Assembly (NCBI GenBank): GCA_000002435.2
Contig: AACB03000016.1
Reading direction: 5' to 3' (one strand)
Source: Giardia intestinalis
Lineage: Eukaryota
Length of the DNA: 10,865 bases
The translations under genes were made by a program, and so were the position numbers. Each line of letters starts with the position of its first letter. Position 1 is the stretch's first letter. The notes under the pieces are model-generated. The model had not been told where the DNA came from, made no database searches, and worked only from the letters and a program-made list of their open reading frames with translations. Positions 1 to 10,257 of this stretch are shown in pieces.

Positions 1-3000
1 TATCTGCACCAACGGAGTCTGAGCACAGAATGCACTCGCTGCCCGGTGTCTTAACTGATGCCTTGTTTTGGAAAACACTTCCGTCAGCCTTGCAAGCGGC
101 ACATACCCCACCGACTGCATTGGTGCATATAAGTTCTCCGGGAGACGCCCCTGTTTTATAACGCCGCCCATGAAGAGGAAGTACCCGTCGCCGCCACATT
201 TACCACACGAGGTGTCCGTGCCCTCTATTGCGGCTCCGGCCGATTGCGTGCACTTTGCCGTCTTTGTGACGAGATCGTCCCCGAACGCCGTGCAGACACC
301 GTCGATGGGTGCGAAGCCCTGCTTGCATTGTGTACACGCTTGGGCTGATCCTATAGTTACCAGTTTGTCGACCTCGCATTGGAAAGACGGAGGGGCCCTG
401 CATGCGTTTGCGGCTCGTCCAGTGCGTGCCCCTCCGCGCATGCTTTGCACTTGGCTGTGCCCGTGTCCCTGTCGGCGCATCACAGGCCGCACAGTTTGCC
501 ACTCCTTTGTTGCTATCTGCACCAACGGAGTCTGAGCACAGAATGCACTCGCTGCCCGGTGTCTTAACTGATGCCTTGTTTTGGAAAACACTTCCGTCAG
601 CCTTGCAGCGGCACATACCCCACCGACTGCATTGGTGCATATAAGTTCTCCGGGAGACGCCCCTGTTTTATAACAGCCGCCCATGAAGAGGAAGTACCCG
701 TCGCCGCCACATTTACCACACGAGGTGTCCGTGCCCTCTATTGCGGCTCCGCCCGATTGCGTGCACTTTGCCGTCTTTGTGACGAGATCGTCCCCGAACG
801 CCGTGCAGACACCGTCGATGGGTGCGAAGCCCTGCTTGCATTGTGTACACGCTTGGGCTGATCCTATAGTTACCAGTTTGTCGACCTCGCATTGGAAAGA
901 CGGAGGGGCCCTGCATGCGTTTGCGGCCTCGTCCAGTGCGTGCCCCTCCGCGCATGCTTTGCACTTGGCTGTGCCCGTGTCCCCTGTCGGCGCATCACAG
1001 GCCGCACAGTTTGCCACTCCTTTGTTGCTATCTGCACCAACGGAGTCTGAGCACAGAATGCACTCGCTGCCCGGTGTCTTAACTGATGCCTTGTTTTGGA
1101 AAACACTTCCGTCAGCCTTGCAAGCGGCACATACCCCACCGACTGCATTGGTGCATATAAGTTCTCCGGGAGACGCCCCTGTTTTATAACAGCCGCCCAT
1201 GAAGAGGAAGTACCCGTCGCCGCCACATTTACCACACGAGGTGTCCGTGCCCTCTATTGCGGCTCCGCCGATTGCGTGCACTTTGCCGTCTTTGTGACGA
1301 GATCGTCCCGAACGCCGTGCAGACACCGTCGATGGGTGCGAAGCCCTGCTTGCATTGTGTACACGCTTGGGCTGATCCTATAGTTACCAGTTTGTCGACC
1401 TCGCATTGGAAAGACGGAGGGGCCCTGCATGCGTTGCGGCCTCGTCCAGTGCGTGCCCTCCGCGCATGCTTTGCACTTGGCTGTGCCCGTGTCCCCTGTC
1501 GGCGCATCACAGGCCGCACAGTTTGCCACTCCTTTGTTGCTATCTGCACCAACGGAGTCTGAGCACAGAATGCACTCGCTGCCCGGTGTCTTAACTGATG
1601 CCTTGTTTTGGAAAACACTTCCGTCAGCCTTGCAAGCGGCACATACCCCACCGACTGCATTGGTGCATATAAGTTCTCCGGGAGACGCCCCTGTTTTATA
1701 ACAGCCGCCCATGAAGAGGAAGTACCCGTCGCCGCCACATTTACCACACGAGGTGTCCGTGCCCTCTATTGCGGCTCCGCCCGATTGCGTGCACTTTGCC
1801 GTCTTTGTGACGAGATCGTCCCCGAACGCCGTGCAGACACCGTCGATGGGTGCGAAGCCCTGCTTGCATTGTGTACACGCTTGGGCTGATCCTATAGTTA
1901 CCAGTTTGTCGACCTCGCATTGGAAAGACGGAGGGGCCCTGCATGCGTTTGCGGCCTCGTCCAGTGCGTGCCCCTCCGCGCATGCTTGCACTTGGCTGTG
2001 CCCGTGTCCCCTGTCGGCGCATCACAGGCCGCACAGTTTGCCACTCCTTTGTTGCTATCTGCACCAACGGAGTCTGAGCACAGAATGCACTCGCTGCCCG
2101 GTGTCTTAACTGATGCCTTGTTTGGAAAACACTTCCGTCAGCCTTGCAAGCGGCACATACCCCACCGACTGCATTGGTGCATATAAGTTCTCCGGGAGAC
2201 GCCCCTGTTTTATAACAGCCGCCCATGAAGAGGAAGTACCCGTCGCCGCCACATTTACCACACGAGGTGTCCGTGCCCTCTATTGCGGCTCCGCCCGATT
2301 GCGTGCACTTTGCCGTCTTTGTGACGAGATCGTCCCCGAACGCCGTGCAGACACCGTCGATGGGTGCGAAGCCCTGCTTGCATTGTGTACACGCTTGGGC
2401 TGATCCTATAGTTACCAGTTTGTCGACCTCGCATTGGAAAGACGGAGGGGCCCTGCATGCGTTTGCGGCCTCGTCCAGTGCGTGCCCCTCCGCGCATGCT
2501 TTGCACTTGGCTGTGCCCGTGTCCCCTGTCGGCGCATCACAGGCCGCACAGTTTGCCACTCCTTTGTTGCTATCTGCACCAACGGAGTCTGAGCACAGAA
2601 TGCACTCGCTGCCCGGTGTCTTAACTGATGCCTTGTTTTGGAAAACACTTCCGTCAGCCTTGCAAGCGGCACATACCCCACCGACTGCATTGGTGCATAT
2701 AAGTTCTCCGGGAGACGCCCCTGTTTTATAACAGCCGCCCATGAAGAGGAAGTACCCGTCGCCGCCACATTTACCACACGAGGTGTCCGTGCCCTCTATT
2801 GCGGCTCCGCCCGATTGCGTGCACTTTGCCGTCTTTGTGACGAGATCGTCCCCGAACGCCGTGCAGACACCGTCGATGGGTGCGAAGCCCTGCTTGCATT
2901 GTGTACACGCTTGGGCTGATCCTATAGTTACCAGTTTGTCGACCTCGCATTGGAAAGACGGAGGGGCCCTGCATGCGTTTGCGGCCTCGTCCAGTGCGTG

Positions 3001-3528
3001 CCCCTCCGCGCATGCTTTGCACTTGGCTGTGCCCGTGTCCCCTGTCGGCGCATCACAGGCCGCACAGTTTGCCACTCCTTTGTTGCTATCTGCACCAACG
3101 GAGTCTGAGCACAGAATGCACTCGCTGCCCGGTGTCTTAACTGATGCCTTGTTTTGGAAAACACTTCCGTCAGCCTTGCAAGCGGCACATACCCCACCGA
3201 CTGCATTGGTGCATATAAGTTCTCCGGGAGACGCCCCTGTTTTATAACAGCCGCCCATGAAGAGGAAGTACCCGTCGCCGCCACATTTACCACACGAGGT
3301 GTCCGTGCCCTCTATTGCGGCTCCGCCCGATTGCGTGCACTTTGCCGTCTTTGTGACGAGATCGTCCCCGAACGCCGTGCAGACACCGTCGATGGGTGCG
3401 AAGCCCTGCTTGCATTGTGTACACGCTTGGGCTGATCCTATAGTTACCAGTTTGTCGACCTCGCATTGGAAAGACGGAGGGGCCCTGCATGCGTTTGCGG
3501 CCTCGTCCAGTGCGTGCCCCTCCGCGCA
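1..3528. repeat. Tandem array of a 516-bp unit. Copy starts at 1, 514, 1029, 1541, 2056, 2571 and 3087, so at least 6.85 copies in the window, and the array continues past the left edge. Copies are near-identical apart from single-base homopolymer indels and one substitution at 239.
   Basis: The string tatctgcaccaacggagtctgagcacagaatgcactcgctgcccggtgtc recurs with periods of 513, 515, 512, 515, 515 and 516 bp. Plus-strand ORF-track entries (683, 1711, 2225, 2741, 3257) repeat identical proteins at the same period. The repeat ends at 3528, where the sequence diverges into unique N-terminal coding sequence. Confidence 0.95.
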
Positions 3529-3654
3529 TTCCATGGGACTGCTTATTCCCTCTATTGTTCCGCACTGATTGCCAGTTGCGCGACTGTTTCTAGTGCCTCC
3601 AGCGCAGTTTGCAGCAAGCACATTCAGCACGAATAGAAGCTCTACTACCAACAT
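1..3654 (-). CDS. Cysteine-rich repetitive surface protein, VSP-like / high-cysteine membrane protein-like with furin-like CXXC repeats. 5' partial: ATG at 3654, C-terminal end beyond the left edge. Frame is intact from 3654 to ~2121 (42-aa unique N-terminus plus ~2.7 repeat units). Left of that, the copies carry frameshifting 1-bp deletions.
   Basis: The minus ORF 1741..3654 begins MLVVELLFVLNVLAANCAGG, a hydrophobic signal-peptide-like N-terminus. It continues with 172-aa units of about 12% Cys containing CTQCK, CGKCGGDGYFLFMGGCY, CAACKADG, CILCSDS, CAACDAP and CKAC. The CXXC spacing and the GGCY motif are hallmarks of Giardia variant-specific surface proteins. After SVFQ, at the ttt-for-tttt site at 2120, the translation changes to an R/H-rich nonsense tail, which marks a frameshift. 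ORFs 1254..1991, 1229..1747, 870..1235 and 200..640 recover the same Cys-rich frame piecewise. Confidence 0.6.
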
Positions 3655-3934
3655 TGTAGTATACCTTGGGCTTTACACCGACTCCTGGCGATAGCAGTGC
3701 CTGGGCGGGCCCCTTCCTCCAGGGAGAGTTCTAGTTCGAGGGCGACCGCCAGGGAGGAGCCCGGTGCTGTGTTACTGGCCCTTGTTCGATGCTTGGCCAG
3801 TCTGAAGGCTGGGGCGGGTCGCTGATAATATATAGTGCGACGTATCGTCCCACTGACGCATCTAAGCCTGTGCGCTCCTCAATTGCTCCGCGGGCATCCC
3901 AGCCCAAGCAGCCTCTGAGGCCCACGGATGATGC

Positions 3935-3976
3935 GGTCGGCTAACTCAGTCGGTAGAGCAACACTGGAGTCTGAAG
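3935..3976 (+). other. Solitary degenerate fragment of a tRNA 5' portion (acceptor 5' strand plus D arm), related to the tRNA in the downstream array. Not a functional tRNA.
   Basis: gcggtcggctaactcagtcggtagagc at 3933-3959 matches the array unit gcggtcggttagctcagtcggtagagc at 25 of 27 positions. The following aacactggagtctgaag only loosely resembles the anticodon-arm part of the unit. No T arm or acceptor 3' strand could be found. Confidence 0.4.
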
Positions 3977-6512
3977 TCTGAGATCAGATGCCCTCGATCT
4001 CGGGGGAAGAACTCCTATGCCCGCCTCCCCTAGAAGCTGCCGCTCCTCGCGGTGCCCCCTAGGACTTCCTTCTCTCTGGCCCGTCGGGGCCAACCATCGT
4101 CTGGCATCTAGTGAGCACCCGCTGTCCCGGGCCTTGCGTCGGTCACAGGACCTGGCCTCAGAGCAGTTGACTCTGGCGCTCCGTGACGAAGATGGGATAC
4201 GCCACGACCCCGGGTGCCTACCCCGTTCCTCGGGGTGCCTCTTCGTCTTCTCATGAAGCGAGTCATCAGTCCCGAGTATGATCGGAGGGTGCGCTCCCCG
4301 TGCGCCTCTGTCTTGGAGTCATAGTACGCGTTCGTGGATGCCGGCGGAGTACTCCTATACGTTGGCGTCGGGGAGGAGGCTCGGCCCTCTGCTCACGGAT
4401 CGCAGGGCGCTCTTGCAGGTGCTCCGTCACCCAGCACGAGATCATGTCGACGCTCACCCTGTGCAGTGTGTCTGGCTCAGTGATGTGTGGGCTGGTCCAT
4501 CCTCACACCGCACACTTGGGGTGATGCTTCGGTCCACCGAGGCGTCGTCCAAAGCATCAGAAGCGATCAGGACCGGTTCGCTGTCAGGCCGTCTCTCTCT
4601 ACAACCGGCACCCGTCTACTCGATGGTGTCAAAGGATTACGCAGCTGCTGTGGTAAGCGCCCAGCAAGTGGCCCAGGCCGCCACCACTCTCCGGTGCAGG
4701 CAGGATTAGTCCACTTCTGCCAGCCAGACACTCCAAGGATCCCGACTTGCCTGTCGAGGGATTCACATGGGTCACGTGTGGGTCCGTCTCGACCAGCGTG
4801 GTGAGTGATTAGTGCCATCACTAGCTTCAAGCTCTCCGTTGCCTTGGAAGCTCCTTAAGACCGGCCAGGAAGAAGGCCTCCTGCTCCTCAGTGCTCCCAC
4901 ACCCAGTGTTGACCGTCGAGCCAATCGCTTCGCCGGGCCTATCGCTTCTGTGACTGCCCCGTCGCGTCGCTGTCGTCGGCACGGGCAGTGAGCGGGGCAT
5001 CTCCTCAGCTCCTGGCGAGCAGGTTCTGTCCCGCGCAGCACAGAAGCATGCGCAGGGTCCCGAGGGACCGAGTCCAGGGGTGCAGCGTGTCGCAGCCGGA
5101 GGAAGGCCTCGACGCAGCTCCTTGGAACTGTGTTGTGGAGCGAATCATGATCGTCCGTTCATCGTGCTTGTCCTGCCCTGTCTCTGGGGAAGGGCTAGAC
5201 GGAACCGTACGGAGCACGCATTCCATCCTATGGATCGCGCCGAGGATCTCGCTGAAGGCCTGCACCCGGATGGGCTCGCCAGCGCAGGCCCGGAGACTTC
5301 GAGCCCCGCGGACTGGCCGTCCGTGCTCTCCGATGGCTGAGGGGGCTCTTGTCTCTCAGGGGCCAGGCCGTCCTGATCCGGCCCTCTGGATAGCAAGGTG
5401 CTGGTCGTCGGTGGCGCTGTTAGGGGGCAGCTCCCCCTCGAGGCGAGGCTTCAGGCCGGGCAGTGGGGTGGTGAATGCCGCTCCTCCGCTTCCCCGCTGT
5501 GTGGGGAGGTACCCTCCCCTGAGCACGTTCGCACGAAGGGCGCTGAAGAGGACGTCCTTCTCCATCCCCGCTGCCCCACTCAGTAGCACCCTGCATCCGG
5601 TGTCCGTGCTGCATACGTCTGGACGGCCTCGCCGCGGAGGGTCTTCGCGCAGGACAGGCACGTGCTCTTCCGCTCCTACTACTTTGGCGTTCGCCCGGTG
5701 CCGCTCCAGCGCAGAGTGCTCCTCTCCGTCAGGTTCCTAAGGTCCTCGTTCTCGCTGTGATACCTGATCTATCCCTCTTGAGGGGTGGGGTTCACGGTGC
5801 ACTGGTGCGTGTCCGGGGCGACGTCTCCCTTGTAGAGTTCTGCAGGTTCCACGACCCTCTGGGGATAGCCAGCGACTGGGACCCCTGTTTGAGGCTAGGG
5901 CTGGCCTGGCTCCACCGGGCCGCGAACAACTCAAGGGCGCTCTGGTGTCGCTGGTCTCTCAACCGCACACTCGACCTGTCTTAGCAGATAACGGGTCGTG
6001 CCTGGGCACCTCCGGGAAGCGCTCCGGTCCGATGCTTTCTGTCCGGGGCATCACGGCAGGCAACGGTGAGGGCCCACGAGGGACACCGCACTCGGGCGCC
6101 GGGGCATGGTGCATGGGCTGGCACCGTCTGTCTGTCGCAAGGCTGCAGAAGGAGCTCAGACGGGGAGGGTTCCCGAGACGTGCTGCTCAGGGCCCTCCGG
6201 TGATGTGAAGGAGGCGTGGCAGCTCCTCGTGCTGTGGATCGCATAGGAGGTCCCCGATGGTGCAGTCTCTTAGTGAACTCCAGCATCCTTGAGCCAGTTC
6301 GTGTAGTCAGCGAGTGACCCCATTGGGACCATTGAGAGCCTGCCACCATGCGCCGCTCTCCATGACAGGGAGGTGCGGGCCCCCTGCTCACTCTATCGGC
6401 TGCTCTCTAGACTCTCTTCTTCGGGCCTCTACAAGCCCTCCTCGGCGGCTTCCCGTCTGGGCCTCTCCCAAAGGCTCGGACTCTCAGACCTCGAGGGTGC
6501 GCAGAGGGCTGG

Positions 6513-9152
6513 CGGGTGCTGGGCCGGCGGGGGGTCCGGCGAGGGGCCGCGGTCGGTTAGCTCAGTCGGTAGAGCGTCAGTCTGATAAGCTGAAGGCGGG
6601 TGCTGGGCCGGCGGGGGGGTCCGGCGAGGGGCCGCGGTCGGTTAGCTCAGTCGGTAGAGCGTCAGTCTGATAAGCTGAAGGCGGGTGCTGGGCCGGCGGG
6701 GGGTCCGGCGAGGGGCCGCGGTCGGTTAGCTCAGTCGGTAGAGCGTCAGTCTGATAAGCTGAAGGCGGGTGCTGGGCCGGCGGGGGGTCCGGCGAGGGGC
6801 CGCGGTCGGTTAGCTCAGTCGGTAGAGCGTCAGTCTGATAAGCTGAAGGCGGGTGCTGGGCCGGCGGGGGGTCCGGCGAGGGGCCGCGGTCGGTTAGCTC
6901 AGTCGGTAGAGCGTCAGTCTGATAAGCTGAAGGCGGGTGCTGGGCCGGCGGGGGGTCCGGCGAGGGGCCGCGGTCGGTTAGCTCAGTCGGTAGAGCGTCA
7001 GTCTGATAAGCTGAAGGCGGGTGCTGGGCCGGCGGGGGGTCCGGCGAGGGGCCGCGGTCGGTTAGCTCAGTCGGTAGAGCGTCAGTCTGATAAGCTGAAG
7101 GCGGGTGCTGGGCCGGCGGGGGGTCCGGCGAGGGGCCGCGGTCGGTTAGCTCAGTCGGTAGAGCGTCAGTCTGATAAGCTGAAGGCGGGTGCTGGGCCGG
7201 CGGGGGGTCCGGCGAGGGGCCGCGGTCGGTTAGCTCAGTCGGTAGAGCGTCAGTCTGATAAGCTGAAGGCGGGTGCTGGGCCGGCGGGGGGTCCGGCGAG
7301 GGGCCGCGGTCGGTTAGCTCAGTCGGTAGAGCGTCAGTCTGATAAGCTGAAGGCGGGTGCTGGGCCGGCGGGGGGTCCGGCGAGGGGCCGCGGTCGGTTA
7401 GCTCAGTCGGTAGAGCGTCAGTCTGATAAGCTGAAGGCGGGTGCTGGGCCGGCGGGGGGTCCGGCGAGGGGCCGCGGTCGGTTAGCTCAGTCGGTAGAGC
7501 GTCAGTCTGATAAGCTGAAGGCGGGTGCTGGGCCGGCGGGGGGTCCGGCGAGGGGCCGCGGTCGGTTAGCTCAGTCGGTAGAGCGTCAGTCTGATAAGCT
7601 GAAGGCGGGTGCTGGGCCGGCGGGGGGTCCGGCGAGGGGCCGCGGTCGGTTAGCTCAGTCGGTAGAGCGTCAGTCTGATAAGCTGAAGGCGGGTGCTGGG
7701 CCGGCGGGGGGTCCGGCGAGGGGCCGCGGTCGGTTAGCTCAGTCGGTAGAGCGTCAGTCTGATAAGCTGAAGGCGGGTGCTGGGCCGGCGGGGGGTCCGG
7801 CGAGGGGCCGCGGTCGGTTAGCTCAGTCGGTAGAGCGTCAGTCTGATAAGCTGAAGGCGGGTGCTGGGCCGGCGGGGGGTCCGGCGAGGGGCCGCGGTCG
7901 GTTAGCTCAGTCGGTAGAGCGTCAGTCTGATAAGCTGAAGGCGGGTGCTGGGCCGGCGGGGGGTCCGGCGAGGGGCCGCGGTCGGTTAGCTCAGTCGGTA
8001 GAGCGTCAGTCTGATAAGCTGAAGGCGGGTGCTGGGCCGGCGGGGGGTCCGGCGAGGGGCCGCGGTCGGTTAGCTCAGTCGGTAGAGCGTCAGTCTGATA
8101 AGCTGAAGGCGGGTGCTGGGCCGGCGGGGGGTCCGGCGAGGGGCCGCGGTCGGTTAGCTCAGTCGGTAGAGCGTCAGTCTGATAAGCTGAAGGCGGGTGC
8201 TGGGCCGGCGGGGGGTCCGGCGAGGGGCCGCGGTCGGTTAGCTCAGTCGGTAGAGCGTCAGTCTGATAAGCTGAAGGCGGGTGCTGGGCCGGCGGGGGGT
8301 CCGGCGAGGGGCCGCGGTCGGTTAGCTCAGTCGGTAGAGCGTCAGTCTGATAAGCTGAAGGCGGGTGCTGGGCCGGCGGGGGGTCCGGCGAGGGGCCGCG
8401 GTCGGTTAGCTCAGTCGGTAGAGCGTCAGTCTGATAAGCTGAAGGCGGGTGCTGGGCCGGCGGGGGGTCCGGCGAGGGGCCGCGGTCGGTTAGCTCAGTC
8501 GGTAGAGCGTCAGTCTGATAAGCTGAAGGCGGGTGCTGGGCCGGCGGGGGGTCCGGCGAGGGGCCGCGGTCGGTTAGCTCAGTCGGTAGAGCGTCAGTCT
8601 GATAAGCTGAAGGCGGGTGCTGGGCCGGCGGGGGGTCCGGCGAGGGGCCGCGGTCGGTTAGCTCAGTCGGTAGAGCGTCAGTCTGATAAGCTGAAGGCGG
8701 GTGCTGGGCCGGCGGGGGGTCCGGCGAGGGGCCGCGGTCGGTTAGCTCAGTCGGTAGAGCGTCAGTCTGATAAGCTGAAGGCGGGTGCTGGGCCGGCGGG
8801 GGTCCGGCGAGGGGCCGCGGTCGGTTAGCTCAGTCGGTAGAGCGTCAGTCTGATAAGCTGAAGGCGGGTGCTGGGCCGGCGGGGGTCCGGCGAGGGGCCG
8901 CGGTCGGTTAGCTCAGTCGGTAGAGCGTCAGTCTGATAAGCTGAAGGCGGGTGCTGGGCCGGCGGGGGGTCCGGCGAGGGGCCGCGGTCGGTTAGCTCAG
9001 TCGGTAGAGCGTCAGTCTGATAAGCTGAAGGCGGGTGCTGGGCCGGCGGGGGGTCCGGCGAGGGGCCGCGGTCGGTTAGCTCAGTCGGTAGAGCGTCAGT
9101 CTGATAAGCTGAAGGCGGGTGCTGGGCCGGCGGGGGGTCCGGCGAGGGGCGC
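6513..9152 (+). repeat. 31 tandem copies of an 84-bp unit. Each unit is a 38-nt G-rich spacer (cgggtgctgggccggcggggggtccggcgaggggccgc) plus the first 46 nt of a tRNA (ggtcggttagctcagtcggtagagcgtcagtctgataagctgaagg; positions 1-46 covering the acceptor 5' strand, D arm with A box, and the complete anticodon stem-loop). tRNA-half starts are at 6551, 6636, then about every 84 bp to 9069. Copies are identical except for G-run and C-run length variants.
   Basis: The period was measured directly as 85, 84, 84 and so on. Each truncated unit matches the complete tRNA at 9153 through ...gctgaagg and then diverges (cgggtg for tcggggg) inside the variable loop. No unit except the last has a T arm / B box. 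Confidence 0.95.
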
Positions 9153-9224
9153 GGTCGGTTAGCTCAGTCGGTAGAGCGTCAGTCTGATAAGCTGAAGGTC
9201 GGGGGTTCGAGCCCCCACCGACCA
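9153..9224 (+). tRNA. Complete tRNA gene, Ile-type with anticodon GAU (isoleucine, reads AUC/AUU). It is the terminal, intact member of the 84-bp array.
   Basis: The cloverleaf was read by hand. Acceptor GGTCGGT / ACCGACC, 7 bp. D arm GCTC-AGTCGGTA-GAGC. Anticodon arm TCAGT-CTGATAA-GCTGA, with U33 and anticodon GAT at 34-36. Variable loop AGGTC. T arm GGGGG-TTCGAG(C)-CCCCC. Discriminator A at 9224. There is no encoded CCA, as expected for a eukaryote. The overall sequence is close to eukaryotic tRNA-Ile(AAU) and bacterial tRNA-Ile(GAU) (CTGATAAG...AGGTCGG.GGTTCGAG). The T loop is 1 nt shorter than canonical: 6 nt if the stem is GGGGG/CCCCC. That may be a C-run undercall, since homopolymer-length noise is evident elsewhere in the window. 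Confidence 0.75.
9160..9212 (+). promoter_or_regulatory. Internal Pol III promoter elements of the complete tRNA. A box TAGCTCAGTCGG at 9160-9171. B box GGTTCGAGCCC at 9203-9213, approximately.
   Basis: Matches to the A-box consensus TRGCNNAGTGG and B-box consensus GGTTCGANTCC. The 31 truncated units each keep an A box but have no B box. No run of four or more T follows the tRNA; there is only cacTTTgtcTTcc. Confidence 0.5.
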
Positions 9225-9240
9225 CTTTGTCTTCCATAAT

Positions 9241-9295
9241 GGGTCCTCTGTGGTGGGTCCTCTGTGGTGGGTCCTCTGTGGTGGGTCCTCGTGAG
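9241..9295. repeat. 15-bp minisatellite gggtcctctgtggtg, about 3.6 copies, 17 bp downstream of the tRNA 3' end.
   Basis: Direct reading: gggtcctctgtggtg at 9241, 9256 and 9271, with a partial copy gggtcctcgt at 9286. Confidence 0.9.
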
Positions 9296-9792
9296 CCTGG
9301 ACGGGCAGTCGTGCCTAGGGGAGTGCACCGGGGACAAAGTGGTGGGAGAGGTGTCCGGCGGCGTGCGGAGGTGCTGGTGCGAGCGGGGCCTCCTGCCGGC
9401 ACTGGACAGATCCGAGTGTGTGCCCGCAGCTGAGTGTCCCCCTGATATATACTCATGACGTTTCCACAATTCTTCATAGAGTTGTGAATATCTGATATCT
9501 TTAAAAGTAGTCACAAATTGTATGCATTTGCTATGACGATCCTTGCACAGATTGTTATTAAATATTGCTAAAACTAACCGTGTGTTCAATCTTCAAATAA
9601 AAGATTTAGATCTAAATAACAACATACATTTGGACACAGCCTTCTGAGAGCGCCAACTACTTTCACGTTTTAATCTTGTCCTCATCTCTACTTCTAATTC
9701 TAGACAAGTTCCATTTCGCTGATTGCCTAACTTTTAGTAAACCAAGGCGCTGCAAATTATCACTATATCAAACTTCTAATGTCTTAGAGTTC

Positions 9793-9812: not shown

Positions 9813-10257
9813 TTAATTAATATTTGCAAGCTCAAACTGATCGTGCGCTGTTGACGCCTTGACGATGGCTTTGGTAGATGCTTCGCAAAAGCGCCCATTC
9901 ATTATTATTTCATCTAAGACATGATATGCCTTAAGGTAGTTGAAAATAAGGTCAAGCTCGCTTACACCTCCAAAGTATCTATCGAGACACGTAGCAAAGA
10001 AGTGGATCATTTCATGTGCTAGTAGCTTGTTGTCTGAATTCTCAACTGCAAAGACAATCGTAAGGTCTGCATACTGCCTTAAGATAAGAGAACCCTCTAT
10101 CCCAGTCGATAATCCCATTAGAAAGCGAGGCGTGGAGCTTCACAGTCCGTATAGCAAGCTGAATTGCGGCGGCTTGCTCAGCTGCCAGTAGGACCTTATA
10201 CCACTTGAGCAGCCGGATCTCGCTCTGTCCGTTGAATATGAGAACAAATTCAATCAT
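9813..10257 (-). CDS. Adaptor protein (AP) complex sigma small subunit, clathrin-adaptor sigma-adaptin family. About 147 aa, with one frameshift near 10094-10100. Best reconstruction: ...IIDWDRG/SLILRQYADL... if one base is removed from the ggg or tt run.
   Basis: The two minus ORFs 10042..10257 (MIEFVLIFNGQSEIRLLKWY...IIDWDRG) and 9813..10118 (...SLILRQYADLTIVFAVENSDNKLLAHEMIHFFATCLDRYFGGVSELDLIFNYLKAYHVLDEIIMNG...) overlap in different frames. Joined, they align colinearly with sigma-adaptins, for example the motifs MIxFxLxxNRxGKxRLxKWY, the YKRYAxLYFxxxxExxDNEL motif, and YFGNVCELDLIFNFxKxYxILDE. The stop TAA is at 9813-9815. The ATG at 10255-10257 is immediately preceded by an AT-rich tract, TTTAAAATAAATG. 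Confidence 0.8.

Follow-up and report, generated by a model that had tools for sequence, protein, structure and literature searches.

The stretch of DNA analysed here, hereafter the window, comprises 10,865 nucleotides of contig AACB03000016.1 of Giardia intestinalis (assembly GCA_000002435.2). It contains a tandem array in which the 5′ part of a tRNA-Ile(GAU) gene recurs many times ahead of one intact copy of the same gene. The array and the features on its immediate 3′ side are as follows.

6511–9203: tandem array with a period of 84, 32.1 copies and 99% matches (Tandem Repeats Finder)
6513–6550, plus strand: native 38-nt G-rich 5′ flank, CGGGTGCTGGGCCGGCGGGGGGTCCGGCGAGGGGCCGC, the leftmost "spacer" instance and identical to the consensus spacer
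6551–9152, plus strand: 31 truncated units, each consisting of tRNA-Ile positions 1–46 and then a 37–39-nt copy of the 5′ flank
9153–9225, plus strand: intact tRNA-Ile(GAU) gene with A and B boxes and no encoded CCA (ARAGORN), the only tRNA in the window
9226–9239, plus strand: 3′ trailer CTTTGTCTTCCATA, holding the first TTT after the array start, the presumed RNA polymerase III (Pol III) stop
9240–9290, plus strand: 14-bp tandem repeat TGGGTCCTCTGTGG in 3.6 copies, directly 3′ of the tRNA trailer (Tandem Repeats Finder)

Units, spacer and junction of the array

An exact-string search of the window recovered 32 identical copies of the 5′ 46-mer of the tRNA-Ile(GAU) gene (GGTCGGTTAGCTCAGTCGGTAGAGCGTCAGTCTGATAAGCTGAAGG), the first starting at 6551 and the last at 9153, and no copies on the minus strand. 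From start to start the distance is 84 bp in 27 cases, 83 bp in three and 85 bp in one; with this period of 84 and the exact spacing of the 46-mer, the array consists of head-to-tail units within the 10–100-bp range of minisatellites, or variable number tandem repeats (VNTRs). The 46-mer comprises the acceptor 5′ strand, the D arm, the anticodon stem-loop and the first bases of the variable loop. The T arm with its B box and the acceptor 3′ strand each occur once in the array and intact gene taken together. The initial annotation had proposed 31 truncated copies plus one intact tRNA and an 84-bp unit that retains tRNA positions 1–46; the former is confirmed by the exact search, Tandem Repeats Finder, ARAGORN and Rfam, and the latter by the search with the 46-mer.

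Most of the spacers between the 46-mers (27/31) are identical to the 38-nt flank CGGGTGCTGGGCCGGCGGGGGGTCCGGCGAGGGGCCGC, and each of the remaining four has a one-base difference within a run of G or of C. The array unit is ~70% G+C with a GC skew of +0.36, and the four G runs in each spacer form a relaxed G-quadruplex motif. With a loop limit of 8 nt there are 31 such motifs in the array, all on the plus strand; one of them satisfies the standard limit of ≤7 nt. As far as can be judged from the sequence, this G-run composition matches that of classically unstable minisatellites and is a plausible reason for the instability of the array, not evidence of a function.

The intact gene alone reaches the Rfam gathering score in the window (RF00005, 72.2 bits at 9153–9224), its cloverleaf is the minimum-free-energy fold (z = −3.44), and orthologues are present in isolates DH and P15. 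It is still preceded by the same 38-nt 5′ flank as before the expansion, and the B box (GGTTCGANNCC), to which TFIIIC binds, was found only at 9201–9211, inside the gene. The anticodon GAU, with G34, lies at 9186–9188; a GAU anticodon in tRNA-Ile is usual in bacteria and archaea, whereas most eukaryotes use AAU (inosine 34). The C run of the T stem (9212–9216) counts 5 C in the window versus 6 in DH and P15, its true length being uncertain.

In the initial annotation the spacer was thought to replace the 3′ half of the tRNA, but it turned out to be the gene's own 5′ flank (6513–6550). Because the spacer is identical to the 38 nt before the first copy (6513–6550), the 84-bp unit represents a contiguous stretch of the genome, gene positions 1–46 together with the 38 bp of native flank ahead of them, repeated head to tail. 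The sequence upstream of 6513–6550 is unique (...CTCGAGGGTGCGCAGAGGGCTGG), and the unique sequence that precedes the 38-nt flank at 6513 (...GAGGGTGCGCAGAGGGCTGG) belongs to a left flank that is shared with DH. At the array junction (...CTGAAGG/CGGGTGC, in full CTGATAAGCTGAAGGCGGGTGC) tRNA position 46 is fused to the native flank. CGGGTGC stands after ...GGGCTGG in the native flank, and the intact gene reads on from AAGG into TCGGGGG; an imperfect microhomology, GG(T)CGGG, is common to both parental sites. We interpret GG(T)CGGG as the probable footprint of a microhomology-mediated tandem duplication. The earlier proposal of one founding duplication at a microhomology, followed by unequal crossing-over or slippage, fits these observations, the same junction being found with remodelled 103- and 72-bp units in DH. 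A tRNA-derived short interspersed element, or retroposed copies in general, was considered as well and rejected, since the copies are strictly tandem, lie at one locus, have neither a B box nor a tail and are separated by the native flank.

The locus in other Giardia isolates and its surroundings

In DH (assemblage A2; AHGT01000015.1, L003) the intact tRNA-Ile gene is accompanied by four truncated copies with the same AAGG/CGGGTGC junction, at spacings of 72, 103, 103 and 103 bp. The 103-bp unit is the 84-bp unit extended by 19 bp that also belong to the native flank and lie between two CGGGTGC direct repeats, the 72-bp unit has lost 12 bp between two CCGGCG repeats, and the left flank of DH is without 15 bp between GGCGG repeats. 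One of the DH spacers carries a real G-to-A substitution. The junction common to the window and DH indicates a single founding event before the A1/A2 split, and the differing unit lengths indicate that slippage has continued.

The orthologous site in P15 (assemblage E, L010), between the adaptin and VSP genes, has one intact tRNA-Ile(GAU) and no array of 5′ halves. The 5′ flank of the P15 gene is unrelated to that of assemblage A except for GGGCCGC (7 nt). Some 122 bp downstream of the intact gene, P15 contains a pseudocopy of tRNA-Ile positions ~24–73 with the anticodon GGT, together with duplicated 3′ flank.

L010, about 11290–11345, minus strand: tRNA-Ile pseudocopy of P15

This 3′-part duplication is most probably independent of the assemblage A array, in which case the same tRNA gene was broken in two lineages. 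As in other minisatellites or VNTRs, the locus is polymorphic, with 31 truncated 84-bp copies in the window, four in DH (possibly a collapsed number) and none in P15. Taken together, these comparisons portray the array as probably specific to assemblage A, young and structurally unstable. They suggest no selection on it, the array being absent in E and its unit length differing between A1-like and A2 sequences.

All 18 short-read contigs stop before the tRNA; those from further isolates and assemblages (P0001, P0002, P0005, P0007, P0012 and P0016) end 23–814 bp past the adaptin gene. Most of those of assemblage A break in a Cys-rich gene remnant or in the 14–15-bp repeat; that they break at the array itself was considered and rejected, as the breaks come earlier, in these two elements. 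In other assemblage A contigs (L004, L003) the 14-bp repeat occurs in a 15-bp form with 4 copies or in ~1.5 copies, a polymorphism that would show the locus to be repeat-prone in general. No other tRNAs or half-copies were found in the 23 retrieved loci, to which the search was confined. There were no exact matches to the junction and the tRNA piece in JGI metagenomes or to the tRNA piece in bacterial and archaeal genomes. A full-text literature search found no paper containing the tRNA sequence, and in the literature on Giardia minisatellites or tRNA tandem repeats nothing was found that describes the locus.

The quality of the window sequence can be judged from the sigma-adaptin gene (9813–10257, minus strand), which is split by a 1-base frameshift, with an extra C in a C run near 10093 relative to all other assemblies. 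After repair, the adaptin is identical at 147/147 positions to that of WB and DH (assemblage A; P0006), at 145/147 to that of P15 (E) and at 141/147 to that of GS (B). This identity, together with the VSP match in Pfam, places the window in G. intestinalis assemblage A. Between 9416 and 10865 the window shows the same 7 single-base indels against three assemblage A Illumina contigs, mostly in short homopolymer runs, and a fourth Illumina contig, aligned from 9607, has all 5 indels within its range. The window thus comes from an unpolished long-read assembly with an indel error of ~0.5%. Because the four spacer variants in 2.7 kb are fewer than this error rate predicts, they are not evidence of real divergence, and with these variants discounted all array copies are effectively identical. 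The initial reading of the copies as very young or actively homogenised remains reasonable, although the homopolymer variation that was cited for it is probably sequencing noise.

The tRNA gene is situated ~36.6 kb into a 163-kb contig in DH and ~89 kb into a 185-kb contig in P15. In both isolates the adaptin gene lies on one side, and on the other side a VSP gene is followed by the genes of a 389-aa protein, a GTPase and a Rit1-like protein. The locus is best described as chromosome-internal and VSP-associated, apparently between conserved single-copy core genes. The idea that the array is a subtelomeric or centromeric satellite does not agree with this position, at least 36 kb inside the contigs of DH and P15 and with conserved genes on both sides. 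The VSP gene of the window is located as follows.

1–3654, minus strand: Cys-rich VSP gene (Pfam VSP match), running off the window start

Within 6 kb of the tRNA array, this gene has a unit of ~516 bp (172 aa) in tandem, in at least 7 copies; its DH orthologue (L003 14313–15143) is single-copy and 276 aa long. With spacings of 512–516 bp between units, the frame in the window seems to be disrupted by indel errors, and the VSP repeat is either a second large tandem expansion in the window or a collapse in the DH assembly. On the 3′ side of the array, a short Cys-rich open reading frame (ORF) at 9264–9458 on the plus strand (…SLDGQSCLGECTGDKVVGEVSGGVRRCWCERG…) resembles the tail of a VSP/HCMP-like gene, of which P15 has a longer version. 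It is the Cys-rich remnant in which, or in the neighbouring 14–15-bp repeat, most assemblage A short-read contigs break off.

In assemblage A the array is separated from the VSP gene by a GC-rich block (~63%) of ~2.4 kb (3977–6330). This is a dispersed repeat, 80–87% identical to positions 8772–11223 of another DH locus (L017), where it lies beside another VSP gene, with no tRNA and no tandem repeat. A 136-aa minus-strand ORF at 5981–6391, used as a probe, found this DH paralogue on another contig (L017) as its sole match. In P15 a partial match of 64–71% (L010 8065–9441) lies on the opposite side of the adaptin gene. The region 3660–6510 was also considered as a retroelement or gene remnant, a candidate that was rejected in view of the lack of Pfam matches for its 13 ORFs and of similarity to the P15 VSP or methyltransferase. 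The block is possibly a repeat that goes with VSP loci, or else a mobile element that is no longer active. Upstream of the adaptin gene there are thioredoxin-like, MORN and methyltransferase genes in assemblage A (L003) versus kinase and DNA primase genes in P15 (L010), and this difference in gene order places the tRNA/VSP locus at or near a synteny break.

Origin and functional potential of the array

The truncated units end at position 46, before the T arm, and thus have no B box; they also have no acceptor 3′ strand. The array contains no TTT/TTTT or AAAA, with no TTT on either strand, and the first TTT follows the intact gene. The RNA fold of the unit is no better than that of shuffled sequences (z = −0.04 and −0.86, versus −3.44 for the intact tRNA). 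A relaxed Rfam search aligned the unit as a T-armless tRNA with 27.8 bits, below the gathering score of 29 bits, by taking GCCGGCG of the spacer as the acceptor 3′ strand. A T-armless mini-tRNA was nevertheless rejected, given the score below gathering, the fact that 38% of shuffled spacers show such pairing over 6 bp or more, and a fold like that of shuffles.

The initial annotation had also connected the array with the 46-nt stress-induced tRNA-derived RNAs (sitRNAs) of Giardia. A sitRNA comprises the last ~46 nt at the 3′ end of a mature tRNA, CCA tail included, and arises by a cut in the anticodon left arm (PMC2577346). The link is not supported by this comparison, as the array holds positions 1–46 and sitRNAs the 3′ ~46 nt (PMC2577346), and the number 46 common to sitRNA length and the tRNA part of the unit is a coincidence. 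A role as a TFIIIC/Pol III boundary is not supported either: a B box is missing from the units, and TFIIIC subunits did not turn up in published homology searches (PMC3369914). In WB, GS and P15 these searches identified TBP and BRF, but no TFIIIC (102 or 63), TFIIIA or B″ (PMC3369914). A survey of vesicle small RNAs in assemblages A, B and E does not mention Ile-derived species, which is weak evidence (PMC10253879). Most likely, the truncated copies are inert pseudogene fragments, and the array is probably without a dedicated function.

We consider it likely, with a probability of about 0.8, that the array is a young, lineage-specific and probably neutral GC-rich minisatellite (VNTR) of assemblage A that happens to include the 5′ part of a tRNA gene. 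It would have been founded by a single microhomology-mediated tandem duplication of a segment straddling the 5′ end of tRNA-Ile(GAU), when replication slipped, or switched template, from one to the other of two sites, GGCGGG located ~40 nt ahead of the gene and GGTCGGG within its variable loop. Unequal sister-chromatid exchange or slippage may then have produced the ~31 extra copies in the isolate of the window, and in other isolates slippage between G-rich direct repeats (CGGGTGC, CCGGCG, GGCGG) would have given rise to the 103- and 72-bp units; we infer that slippage and unequal exchange are the mechanism of the expansion. The tRNA survives because the head-to-tail duplication stops at position 46 and leaves the 3′-most copy fused to the only 3′ half. 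As this last copy is a normal tRNA gene in its original 38-nt upstream context, there is no obvious cost to the cell.

Given the independent 3′-part duplication in assemblage E, the body of the tRNA gene appears to be a recurrent breakpoint. tRNA genes are established pause and fragile sites of replication forks, and minisatellites rich in G runs are unstable. The recurrent breakage of this tRNA gene fits both properties, and independent duplications of the 5′ part (in A) and of the 3′ part (in E) would mark it as a natural replication-fragile site.

Several points weigh against this interpretation. For its 32 copies, and even for its contiguity, the array depends on a single long-read assembly that is prone to error, and the four copies of DH may reflect a collapsed 454 assembly. 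Besides the window only two assemblies (DH and P15) span the locus, and the comparison is limited further by the assemblage B contigs, which run into unrelated sequence and end 208–814 bp past the adaptin gene, ahead of any tRNA. The copies are judged inert from missing promoter and terminator elements that were defined in other eukaryotes, not in Giardia, and every unit carries the proximal 5′ flank and the start site of the gene. Finally, selection or active homogenisation would likewise lead one to expect copies that are perfectly homogeneous over 2.7 kb.

One rival reading is a functional Pol III-linked element, in which every unit initiates and reads through to the stop behind the intact tRNA, yielding 5′-half-like small RNAs, extra tRNA-Ile precursor or a chromatin boundary beside the VSP gene. 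The units do keep the 5′ flank, the start site and the A box, the array has no T runs and lies between the VSP gene and housekeeping genes, and Giardia, which is without recognisable TFIIIC, TFIIIA and B″, may use TBP and BRF, so that independence of the B box is conceivable (PMC3369914). However, the 5′ flank is conserved with assemblage E over 7 nt only, which makes a promoter there unlikely; E has no array, A2 has a remodelled one, and the unit has no stable fold. Moreover, sitRNAs derive from the 3′ part of mature tRNAs, the literature yielded no match to the sequence and the vesicle survey is silent on Ile, although the latter counts for little. We therefore regard such an element as unlikely. 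That the array specifically provides 31 extra Pol III initiation sites, with TBP/BRF acting through the proximal flank and read-through "poly-half" transcripts ending behind the intact tRNA, seems to us quite unlikely; if true, it would constitute an assemblage-A-specific source of 5′ tRNA-Ile-like small RNAs or extra tRNA-Ile precursor. A structural role of the DNA itself, as a G-quadruplex or R-loop element serving for example replication timing or the demarcation of VSP-locus chromatin with the tRNA fragment as a passenger, would be in keeping with the relaxed motif in each of the 31 units, all on the non-template strand with regard to tRNA transcription, and the GC skew of +0.36. Yet 1/31 motifs obeys the standard loop rule (≤7 nt), the array is not conserved in E and the unit lengths in DH vary by loss or gain of G runs, which makes this role very improbable.

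A different kind of doubt concerns the array as assembled, which, or most of whose 32 copies, could result from long-read mis-assembly or over-extension of a shorter repeat. This would be in line with the high indel error of the window and its frameshifted housekeeping gene, and none of the other assemblies retrieved contains ~32 copies, all 18 short-read contigs ending before the tRNA. The same junction, however, occurs four times over at this locus in the independent DH assembly, which shows that a repeat of this type exists; in addition, assemblers usually collapse tandem arrays and rarely inflate them, and the array is bordered on either side by clean unique sequence that agrees with DH. 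An artefact of this kind is accordingly held to be very doubtful. The length of the unit, 84 bp or 28 codons, further raises the question of a protein-coding repeat, since one plus-strand frame, starting with an ATG at 6362, runs through the array without a stop, with a 742-aa ORF at 6600–8828 and two of the six unit frames open. But an open frame is expected from a unit of 70% G+C with a length divisible by three, the 28-aa repeat peptide has no homologue among 5.8 billion protein sequences, the only Pfam match is below cut-off and the 103-bp units of DH put stops in every frame. A coding repeat is therefore extremely improbable, and the absence of homologues together with the frame broken by the 103-bp units of DH is what one finds in a non-coding minisatellite without a conserved frame.

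Significance and relation to known systems

On present evidence, the array reveals no new RNA or chromatin system. As a minisatellite it is of interest for other reasons. It offers a clean natural example of the birth of such a repeat, in which the founding junction, the native flank and the remodelling of units can all still be read, and the breakage of the same tRNA gene in two Giardia lineages points to a recurrent breakpoint. It is also a candidate high-resolution VNTR marker for assemblage A, in which sequence diversity is low; tRNA-linked repeats of Entamoeba are already in use as such markers. For studies of tRNA fragments it has a practical consequence, as a read from the 5′ part of tRNA-Ile fits every one of the 32 copies and only junction or spacer reads identify transcripts of the array. 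A further practical point is that the short-read assemblies among the contigs examined all stop within ~600 bp of the adaptin gene and reach neither the tRNA nor the array.

Compared with sitRNAs (PMC2577346), the array shares the organism, the derivation from tRNA and the nominal 46 nt. However, sitRNAs are RNA cleavage products of nearly all tRNA species, whereas the array concerns one tRNA at the DNA level, and the two overlap in the anticodon arm only. sitRNAs and tRNA halves are defined by a 3′ portion with CCA or a cut in the anticodon loop, while the tRNA part of the array ends in the variable loop.

The tRNA arrays of Entamoeba (PMC2652664) are likewise found in a gut protist and consist of tandem units that combine tRNA sequence with polymorphic short repeats. 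In Entamoeba these short tandem repeats are G/C- or A/T-rich, and a structural role for the arrays has been speculated upon (PMC2652664). The arrays there include almost all tRNA species and make up >10% of the genome, and each of their units has between one and five tRNA genes that are complete and apparently functional, pseudogene copies not being clearly in evidence (PMC2652664). In contrast, the Giardia array is a single locus of truncated copies with one functional gene: a complete tRNA is present in 1/32 copies according to ARAGORN and the Rfam gathering score, the units scoring 27.8 bits.

Partial duplications of tRNA genes are known from the tRNA pseudogene repeats in a tRNA operon of Photobacterium phosphoreum and from tRNA fragments in organelle tandem repeats. 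These cases resemble the Giardia array in that the unit boundary lies inside a tRNA gene and truncated copies stand beside an intact one, slippage or illegitimate recombination having been invoked. They differ in that the bacterial and organellar examples usually comprise few copies, whereas in Giardia a nuclear locus carries ~31 perfectly homogeneous 5′ fragments.

A further parallel is with the classical GC-rich minisatellites or VNTRs, such as the G-rich, G-quadruplex-prone CEB1-type loci of humans. The head-to-tail units of tens of bp, the G/C strand asymmetry, the G runs and the near-identity of the copies are common to both, as are variation in copy number and unit structure between isolates and an explanation by slippage and unequal exchange at short direct repeats, although for hypervariability of the CEB1 type the polymorphism in Giardia is known from two compared isolates only. 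What sets the Giardia array apart from these loci is that its unit is a partial gene duplication, the 3′-most copy of which completes a working tRNA gene.

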